The notes: a model not told the origin generated them from the letters alone. A stretch of DNA of 64,000 nt from an uncultured Chlamydiales bacterium (GCA_963785335.1 CAWAUW010000002.1:168952-232951), one strand, 5' to 3'; shown: positions 61,521-61,950, counted from the stretch's first letter. A program made the numbers and translations.

Positions 61521-61950
61521 CCCATGCGCTAAATTAATTAGATTCCAAGTATCTTCTTCAGACTGAAGGTCTGGGCTATAAAAGCCCGGGCAGCGCCCTG
61601 GCTATACTGTAGATGTGATTGCAGGCTGAAGGCTCGTTATAGTGAACAATAAATTAAACAGATATTTGGCCAAAAACTATTACCTTTTTTGTTTACAATA
61701 ACGCAGGCCTTCAGCCTGCAATTCTTTTTACAACGTTCCCAGGGCGCTGCCCTGGGCTTTTATAACCCAGGCCTTCAGCCTGCAAACCACACCACAGTAT
61801 GCCCAGGAACATGCCCAGGGCTTTTATAACGCAGGCCTTCAGCTTACAAATCACACCCACAGTATACCCAGGGCCTGCCCTGGGCTTTAACAACCCAGAC
61901 TTTCAGTCTGAATATGATATTTAAAAATCTATTTAAATTAGCGCTCATGG
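61521..61950. repeat. Composite F3 palindrome with a tandemly expanded right arm
   Basis: Left arm 61559-61633 (hairpins CAGACTGAAGGTCTG, GCCCGGGCAGCGCCCTGGC, GCAGGCTGAAGGC). Right arm 61703-61910 contains the complementary two-hairpin unit three times with a 64-65-bp period. Outer IR 61521-61535/61934-61950. Confidence 0.85.

Follow-up and report, generated by a model that had tools for sequence, protein, structure and literature searches.

The DNA upstream of hemL in an uncultured chlamydial genome raises the question of whether a large palindrome at this position serves the adjacent gene, encodes small RNAs, or is a mobile repeat. The structure (E1, 61521-61950), a composite palindrome, spans 430 bp and is bounded on both sides by terminal inverted repeats. 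It lies in a window of 64 kb, meaning here the whole stretch of DNA that was analyzed, which also contains a related locus, E2 (13866-14615). Based on the evidence discussed below, E1 is probably an old, decaying copy of a non-autonomous, MITE-like mobile repeat whose arms are built from divergent two-hairpin modules of the Rfam family RF01687, with E2 as a second copy.

The sequence-only reading described E1 as a composite palindrome in which the right arm is a threefold expansion of a two-hairpin module, and analyses with a repeat finder and TRF found this structural description to be correct. All of the elements that it listed were located, either at the same coordinates or within a few bases of them. 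The module consists of hairpin B, with a stem of 5-6 bp and a GAA-type loop, a TATAAAA linker, and hairpin A, with a GC stem of 8-9 bp and a 3-nt loop. The left arm has the order B-linker-A-spacer-B, and the right arm contains the complementary 64-bp unit three times. The features of the locus are the following.

60057-61367, minus strand: hemL (glutamate-1-semialdehyde aminomutase), the flanking gene, outside E1 (open reading frame; homologues carry PF00202).
61449-61520, plus strand: possible remnant of an older copy, adjoining E1 (pattern matches and a weak covariance-model match).
61451-61462, plus strand: terminal-repeat-like part of the remnant, ATGCACTAACTT (pattern match).
61486-61500, plus strand: degenerate B hairpin of the remnant, CAACCTAAAAGGCTG, followed by the linker GGATAAAA and a partial A-like sequence.
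61521-61544, plus strand: left terminal inverted repeat of E1, CCCATGCGCTAAATTAATTAGATT (inverted repeat I6 and pattern).
61553-61602, plus strand: left-arm two-hairpin unit, comprising B1, the linker GGCTATAAAA and A (sequence; covariance model R1, 50.8 bits).
61559-61573, plus strand: B1 hairpin, CAGACTGAAGGTCTG (sequence).
61584-61602, plus strand: left-arm A hairpin, with one C.T mismatch (sequence).
61603-61648, plus strand: left-arm spacer, degenerate B2 and the conserved GTTATAGTGAAC motif (sequence; comparison with canonical arms).
61621-61633, plus strand: inner hairpin B2, GCAGGCTGAAGGC, with its 3' half broken (GGCTCG in place of GGCCTGCG).
61649-61689, no strand: AT-rich center of the palindrome, between the arms of I2; loop of the predicted long hairpin.
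61690-61761, plus strand: start of the right arm, with the inner motif GTTTACAATAAC and unit 1 (direct-repeat family D1; RF01687 match).
61703-61719, plus strand: B2' of unit 1, followed by a spacer.
61738-61757, plus strand: A' of unit 1, intact, followed by CTTTTATAAC (terminator-like call).
61762-61825, plus strand: unit 2 of the right arm (D1 copy, 73% identity; R1, 42.3 bits).
61768-61782, plus strand: B' of unit 2, intact (sequence).
61801-61821, plus strand: A' of unit 2, degenerate (sequence).
61826-61889, plus strand: unit 3 of the right arm (D1 copy, 69% identity).
61832-61846, plus strand: B' of unit 3, with two stem mismatches (sequence).
61866-61885, plus strand: A' of unit 3, intact (R1, 57.8 bits for 61867-61916).
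61896-61910, plus strand: outermost hairpin B1', CAGACTTTCAGTCTG, partner of B1 at 61559-61573 (sequence, pattern and fold).
61926-61950, plus strand: right terminal inverted repeat of E1, AATCTATTTAAATTAGCGCTCATGG (I6; minus-strand pattern match).

The outer inverted repeat that had been proposed is real. As I6, 61526-61544 pairs with 61926-61944 over 19 nt with 89% complementarity, and the inner repeat I2 pairs 61580-61633 with 61707-61760. The tandem unit was found in three copies of 64 nt starting at 61698, 61762 and 61826, with the second and third sharing 73 and 69% identity with the first; TRF reported a period of 64, 2.7 copies and a score of 230. The left arm is complementary to the three right-arm units at 80, 76 and 72%, its best partner being unit 3 (I1, 74 nt, 80%). 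A pattern for the A module matched six times in the window, where 0.00 matches were expected, and a terminal-repeat pattern matched three times (0.08 expected). Folded as RNA, E1 reaches -202 kcal/mol (z = -18). Four ORFs were called inside it, all shorter than 61 aa (listing floor, 40 aa).

That the three tandem units are an artefact of assembly is scarcely credible. Short-read contigs do break in or next to the element, and no independent assembly spans the array. For instance, one contig with the same hemL ends inside the left arm at about 61581, and contigs with the same or a 93%-identical hemL end inside or just before E1, as expected for a repeat. However, the units are 69-73% identical and differ by 27-31%, and assemblers do not invent diverged copies. 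Moreover, arrays of the module, diverged as well as identical, are present in the Rfam seed and in numerous independent assemblies. A CRISPR array, in which near-identical repeats alternate with unique spacers beside cas genes or a leader, was rejected because there are only three units, at 69-73% identity, and no part of the unit is missing from the inverted arm. On anatomical grounds, the structure was also not taken for a riboswitch or leader, or for an integron attC site.

The state of preservation varies along E1. The hairpins of unit 1 are intact (DNA fold, z = -5.15), the fold of unit 2 is no better than that of shuffled sequences (z = -0.14), and damage is found in hairpin B of unit 3 and in the left B2, which lies in a stretch that was compared with the canonical arms, TTGCAGGCTGAAGGCCTGCGTTATAGTAAA, of loci L001, L008 and L018. 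The window contains nine B hairpins in total, two of them broken. The loop of hairpin B, said earlier to be kept as TGAAG/CTTCA, is not strictly constant, as TGAAG, TGAAA, TGAAGA and TCGAAG are all found. In the putative remnant to the left of E1, 61480-61513 gives a weak covariance-model match (12.9 bits, E 0.12), and the layout of 61449-61520 resembles that of nested copies in L018 and L005.

The location of E1 upstream of hemL was confirmed. The gene occupies 60057-61367 on the minus strand, with NfeD downstream of it, and E1 lies in the divergent intergenic region. The best matches of HemL are 80% identical in the MAG MFD01716.bin.1.202, 77% in a "Chlamydiales bacterium" and about 57-61% in Parachlamydiaceae, and by these homologues the host of the window appears to be an uncultured chlamydial lineage. 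The assembly SZAS-7 (GCA_018239765.1, JAFEGT01; L001, L005 and L145), labeled Verrucomicrobia, encodes a HemL 75% identical to that of the window and, like the window, has the hemL-nfeD order and carries the chlamydial repeat family. It was probably assigned to the wrong phylum and is treated here as chlamydial.

This location could indicate a cis-regulatory element of hemL, or a bidirectional terminator insulating the divergent genes, that is kept by the host. The A' hairpin followed by CTTTTATAAC was called terminator-like on the plus strand, and E2, which carries the same feature on the minus strand, lies between convergent genes, where terminators are expected. However, no E1-type element was found upstream of hemL in five related lineages (L019, L021, L024, L145 and L147), a comparison that shows absence rather than a clean empty site, as the upstream neighbors differ and synteny is not conserved. 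Unit 2 and the left B2 are broken, which also speaks against maintenance by the host. For the terminator, conservation of the U-rich tail that follows the hairpin does not extend to the Rfam seed, and the wobble asymmetry described below favors the strand opposite to the terminator orientation. Overall, a host-maintained regulatory or insulating role is unlikely. Given its absence from the five relatives, E1 does not appear to be a feature or regulator of hemL, and termination by the A' hairpin is possibly a side effect, since the tail is unconserved in the seed and the asymmetry lies on the other strand.

Two further structures were seen near hemL genes. In MFD01716, the place of E1 is taken by an unrelated palindrome, (GAGACC)n ... 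(GGTCTC)n, upstream of hemL (L019, 4720-4840). In the window, a terminator-like hairpin, TCGCTTTGGCACAGCGA followed by TTTATTTTTT, lies at 61426-61442 on the minus strand, the hemL strand, between E1 and the hemL start. It could be a leader structure of hemL or part of the remnant copy.

Relatives of E1 were found at unrelated positions in other genomes. A pattern built around the B loop and the linker was run against genomes with a single representative per species and returned 18 loci. In the loci from chlamydial MAGs (L001, L005, L008-L010, L014, L015 and L018) the modules form a canonical palindrome of about 270 bp, with the order terminal repeat, B1, GGTTTTAAAA, A, spacer, B2, GTTATAGTAAA, a center of about 30 nt, and the reverse complement. 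By comparison with these loci, E1 is the canonical chlamydial element with an expanded right arm, and its terminal repeat is common to E2 and to the elements in L001, L005 and L018. The MAG MFD01716 (CAWGYH01) has at least seven exact-pattern copies, which are near-identical and occupy unrelated sites; in its locus L014, three whole elements stand in tandem with a period of 348 bp. The dispersal and variable presence that define a MITE are observed as two or three copies in the 64 kb of the window, as the copies in MFD01716, and as the absence from the hemL loci.

The organization of the family is otherwise diverse. In L018, in L005 and at 61449-61520 of the window, a terminal repeat adjoins half an A hairpin, the linker and B of another copy, which suggests nesting. 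Single modules occur in L006, and tandem arrays of the unit with periods of 56-110 bp occur in L027, L034, L050, L132 and L144. A blastn search of plasmids and a scan of viral contigs gave no match. The terminal repeats of the elements differ among subfamilies, and the distance from terminus to module ranges from 0 to about 90 nt. This variability of ends and distances weakens the idea of a fixed binding site.

Some loci showed additional features. Copies in MFD01716 at L009 (6640-7040) and L010 (about 6925-7330) lie about 600 bp downstream of 5S rRNA in a duplicated rRNA region; the two loci share an identical region of about 7 kb, with rRNA genes annotated in L009 only. In the Bacteroidota isolate Cecembia rubra DSM 28057 (L004, 5530-6843), a look-alike two-hairpin module, AGGCCTGAAGGGCTG ... 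GCCCGGGGTGAAAGCCTGGG, is repeated in tandem at least seven times with a period of about 204-426 bp, and this array gave no match to Rfam at the gathering threshold.

The recurrence of the A and B modules about 47 kb away from E1, also noted previously, was verified at 13866-14615, where the terminal repeat is shared with E1.

13866-14615, no strand: E2, second copy of E1's family (shared ends and modules).
13904-13919: extra B hairpin of E2 (sequence).
14063-14114, plus strand: two-hairpin unit of E2 (R1).
14533-14583, minus strand: two-hairpin unit of E2 (R1).

E2 is 750 bp long, with ends CATAAGCGATAACTTAATTAGATT (also given as CATAAGCGATAACTT...) and the complement AAGTTAGCGCTTATG. Its two units score 44.9 and 51.0 bits with the covariance model R1, which detects full units within the 64 kb at the E1 and E2 loci only. 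E2 is split by two unrelated palindromes. The first, at 13944-14046, is AT-rich and 103 bp long, with arms of 42 nt (83%), and sits between two B hairpins of the E2 left arm. The second, of about 187 bp at 14203-14389, is nested in the E2 center and has arms of 51 nt with 92% complementarity (TAGCCCACTGTTTCGCGCCGGAAGGTGCAAACGGTGGGAAA...) and a perfect hairpin, GTCGCGCCAGCGACTA...TAGTCGCTGGCGCGAC, at its middle; it probably represents another MITE family. Other repeats in the window include an inverted pair of hexamer repeats, (TCTTGA)n at 42520-42553 facing (AAGATY)n at 42595-42632, with a terminator-like hairpin at about 42669-42695 after these arrays and a similar AAGATT run at 32709-32738. 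In addition, TTATCG-based tandem repeats of 8-9 bp are found in several intergenic regions (48727-48873, 359-381, 8923-8959 and 21427-21464), where arrays of TTATCGTTC x3.9 are separated by about 40 bp from GATAAGAAC-type repeats that face them. These may be arrays of protein-binding sites.

The two-hairpin module itself is related to a known Rfam family. In an E-value scan of 61400-62000 with cmscan, 61738-61782 of E1 (plus strand) aligned end to end with RF01687, the Acido-Lenti-1 motif, over model positions 1-46 (33.4 bits, E 8e-6). Both helices are formed in this alignment and recur in the predicted fold of the unit. The left-arm unit matched RF01687 with 16.5 bits on the minus strand. At the gathering threshold, for which the curated score of RF01687 is 37 bits, Rfam yielded nothing in the window or in 14 of the 18 genome-scan loci, including all eight chlamydial loci. 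As the scores in the window are below 37 bits (best 33.4, next 16.5), the matches represent divergent relatives rather than certified members, and the E1 module is a divergent form of the Acido-Lenti-1 motif.

When the motif was described, 89 representatives were reported from Lentisphaera, Koribacter, Rhodopirellula and metagenomes, and it was scored as a likely RNA or sRNA with covariation and sometimes found near group II introns (Weinberg 2010, PMC2864571). A 2026 preprint notes that little is known about it. In both RF01687 and the E1 module, a stem of 8 bp closed by a loop of 3-4 nt is joined through a linker of some 12 nt to a second stem, of 5 bp, with a triloop, and RF01687 is found in the PVC superphylum, among others. 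Coordinates in the Rfam seed also reveal facing pairs, as well as members that follow one another in tandem at spacings of 69-74, 110-115 and about 195 bp. The two differ in that the listed taxa of RF01687 are without Chlamydiales, whereas the host of E1 is placed in this group; Rfam treats the motif as an sRNA gene, whereas here it is a building block of a putative mobile repeat; a third hairpin (B2) and the GTTATAGTAAA motif are present in addition in the chlamydial arms; and the strand that pairs better is the opposite of the one annotated in Rfam.

The connection to transposition comes from metagenomes, many of which contain elements with the E1-type architecture. A metagenome scan anchored on the linker and hairpin A, with B left free, found at least 120 stretches and, among the matches listed, 164 units. 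Each of these listed units has its B in the same register, and the stems come in dozens of variants. An abundant sister family with GTAACTACTCAG on both ends has perfect 8-bp duplications at 15 of the 29 complete elements among the matches listed, and three more have one mismatch; a shifted control gave no matches. Its arms match RF01687 with 38.5-45.2 bits, above the cut-off, as inverted pairs. For example, the L087 element at 2181-2340, with the duplication CAAATCTC, contains RF01687 matches at 2191-2235 (minus strand) and 2286-2330 (plus strand). Because 15 of the 29 elements have perfect target-site duplications, the sister family is one that transposes, and the certified Acido-Lenti-1 matches in it are arms of a transposing MITE. 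Both arms of the L128 elements, which have the B1-A-B2 arm of the E1 type, also pass the RF01687 cut-off.

No convincing target-site duplication was seen in the flanks of E1, E2 and L001, for which several candidate termini were inspected, or in those of the MFD01716, L124 and L128 subfamilies. Without a duplication at E1, E2 and L001, the case for transposition of E1's subfamily comes from its relatives. The MFD01716 copies are flanked on both sides by a GCCCGAAGGGC-type hairpin, and those of L128 by an offset GCTCAGCC repeat.

The hairpins of the module are conserved in structure across the family. The sequence-only reading proposed that the stems change in a paired way, and a count of covariation bears this out. 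In 75 distinct units, obtained among the matches listed with a pattern that does not constrain hairpin B, 95.1% of cells pair, compared with 81.3% in shuffles (0 of 500 reach 95.1%), and pairing falls to 43-64% when the partners are slid. All six pairs of helix B show changes on both sides. At one A-stem position, where the pattern permits all four combinations, the 164 units had 86 C-G pairs, 75 T-A pairs and three non-Watson-Crick combinations, two of them T.G. The further claim that this reflects selection on structure is supported across the family by the 95% pairing (81% in shuffles), but not for E1 itself, which has broken hairpins and is absent at the five hemL loci. Thus, the constraint is visible at the level of the family rather than at the E1 locus. 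Within the sister family, elements with and without an intact duplication had means of 21.6 and 21.3 of 26 pairs (p = 0.47), counted in a gapless register that fails for arms with a longer B.

The two arms of one element may carry different, internally compensated stems, as in CCCAGGGC/GCCCTGGG and CCTGGGGC/GCCCCAGG, or CCCAGGG and CCTATGG in the arms of MFD01716. Since the arms differ and each is compensated, it is the local hairpins that are conserved and not the pairing from arm to arm. However, template switching can restore pairing in DNA palindromes without selection, and covariation by itself is therefore no proof that an RNA is under selection.

The wobble pairs also indicate a preferred strand. 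A recount of the RF01687 seed in its annotated orientation found 38 A.C and 8 G.U combinations, concentrated at two positions (PMC2864571, supplementary file 183). The opposite strand therefore folds better, and RF01687 may have been annotated on the wrong strand. Similarly, in the unit set collected here the closing pair of B includes 7-9 T.G and no A.C among the matches listed. The strand that pairs better runs from the terminus to B, the linker and A, and differs between the two arms of one element. As the arms are inverted, the favored strand differs at the two ends, as would be expected of an end-symmetric process more than of a single transcript. A similar asymmetry could also arise from strand-biased C-to-T mutation. 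Loop polarity was rejected as a strand marker because TGAAA, TTTCT, AAC and GTT represent both polarities within one family.

These observations bear on the possibility that the module is a gene for a trans-acting small RNA, as the Rfam label has it, with E1 as a cluster of four. The original scoring of the motif as a likely RNA with covariation, the strong covariation in the 75 units and the tolerance of G.T wobbles are what would be expected of an RNA. In contrast, the certified RF01687 matches form the two inverted arms of elements flanked by target-site duplications, and the strand that folds better is opposite to the annotated one and changes between the arms of one element. Furthermore, no promoter-like site was found within E1, its units are decaying, and copies occur in both orientations and in tandem. 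It is thus quite unlikely that E1 is a cluster of sRNA genes.

Another possibility is that the hairpins are REP/BIME-type palindromes spread on single-stranded DNA by a RAYT (Y1/HUH) enzyme and not by a DDE transposase. The occurrence of single modules (L006), inverted pairs and tandem arrays is similar in the two systems, as are the constraint on single-strand hairpins and the strand asymmetry, and the copies that abut the A hairpin of another copy (L018, L005 and 61449-61520) recall structure-targeted insertion. REP sequences are defined as palindromes of 20-40 nt with a GTAG or CGTC tag at one end and without terminal inverted repeats or target duplication (PMC3733652). In the sister family, however, the terminal inverted repeats are sharp and the elements are flanked by 8-bp duplications, a product that HUH enzymes do not leave. 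Moreover, neither GTAG nor CGTC was seen on inspection as a conserved tag beside hairpins B and A, and no Y1 gene was seen in the loci in a non-exhaustive search. Spread by a RAYT is very unlikely, and a non-autonomous MITE-like repeat with terminal inverted repeats is preferred.

If E1 is such a repeat, it would have arrived by transposase-mediated insertion, as in the sister family. Either its duplication would since have been lost, or it would have inserted into an older copy, the remnant at 61449-61520. B1 and B2 are near-identical direct repeats of 15-17 nt that bracket the spacer-A-linker unit, and the threefold expansion may have arisen by replication slippage or unequal exchange between them. 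Slippage between near-identical B hairpins is likely because the unit is found in tandem runs time and again within the family. The hairpins would be kept because the element needs single-strand folding, as DNA or RNA, to propagate, and the constraint on them would act at copying and not at the resident site.

The enzyme that would mobilize the element has a candidate in the IS66 family. No transposase was found among the ten ORFs examined in the window or in the roughly 1 Mb covered by the loci (144 of 149 loci). Clustering of the 755 ORFs of at least 150 aa from the 144 loci yielded only ABC transporters, histidine kinases, LRR and TPR proteins, all of them widespread families, and no partner of the element. 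Long intervals between candidate ends in L034 and L135 were rejected as autonomous elements, as they hold membrane proteins and RecQ and no transposases. The inverted repeat of IS66 starts with GTAAGCG, and its insertions have 8-bp direct repeats (PMC11946415). The ends of E2, ATAAGCG(A/C)TAAC, agree with GTAAGCG at six of seven positions; E1 ends with ATGCGC and ATGAGCGC, and the sister family, with its 8-bp duplications, starts with GTAACTA (four of seven positions of the consensus). This partial terminal match points weakly to IS66 and is offered as a lead only. The likeness consists of the 8-bp duplications in the sister family and the GTAAGCG-like ends of E2, while the difference is that no IS66 transposase was found in the window or loci.

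A tentative and rather doubtful proposal goes further. The RF01687 module may be not an sRNA but a fold-specific cis signal that acts in single-stranded form at each end of transposons with terminal inverted repeats and 8-bp duplications, perhaps mobilized by IS66. If true, the ends would be recognized by shape rather than sequence. Recognition of this kind would account for stems that covary from Chlamydiae to Lentisphaerae, Acidobacteria and many metagenome lineages alongside terminal repeats that diverge, and for a wobble-tolerant strand that runs inward from each terminus.

For annotation, the preferred reading of E1 as a MITE-like mobile repeat means that it should not be labeled as a hemL regulator or a novel RNA gene. 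It also ties the Rfam "sRNA" RF01687 to the arms of elements with target-site duplications, which bears on how matches to this family are read, and extends the range of the family to environmental Chlamydiae. The question it raises is why a transposon with terminal inverted repeats conserves local hairpins by structure.

Bacterial MITEs such as Correia/NEMIS, ERIC/IRU and RUP are small, non-coding, intergenic elements with terminal inverted repeats and long hairpins that are present in many copies and may be nested. E1 resembles them in being short and non-coding with terminal inverted repeats, and in having a sister family with target duplications of fixed length, although inspection of the flanks detected no duplication for E1 or E2. 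Conservation in ordinary MITEs resides in the terminal repeats. In contrast, the ends of the E1 family vary among subfamilies, and the internal local hairpins are conserved in structure across very distant hosts. The pneumococcal BOX elements and the BIMEs of E. coli are likewise modular repeats in which the tandem copy number of a hairpin subunit varies between loci, and BIMEs are without terminal inverted repeats and target duplications. While their sequences are unrelated to that of E1, they share with it both modularity and variation in tandem copy number.
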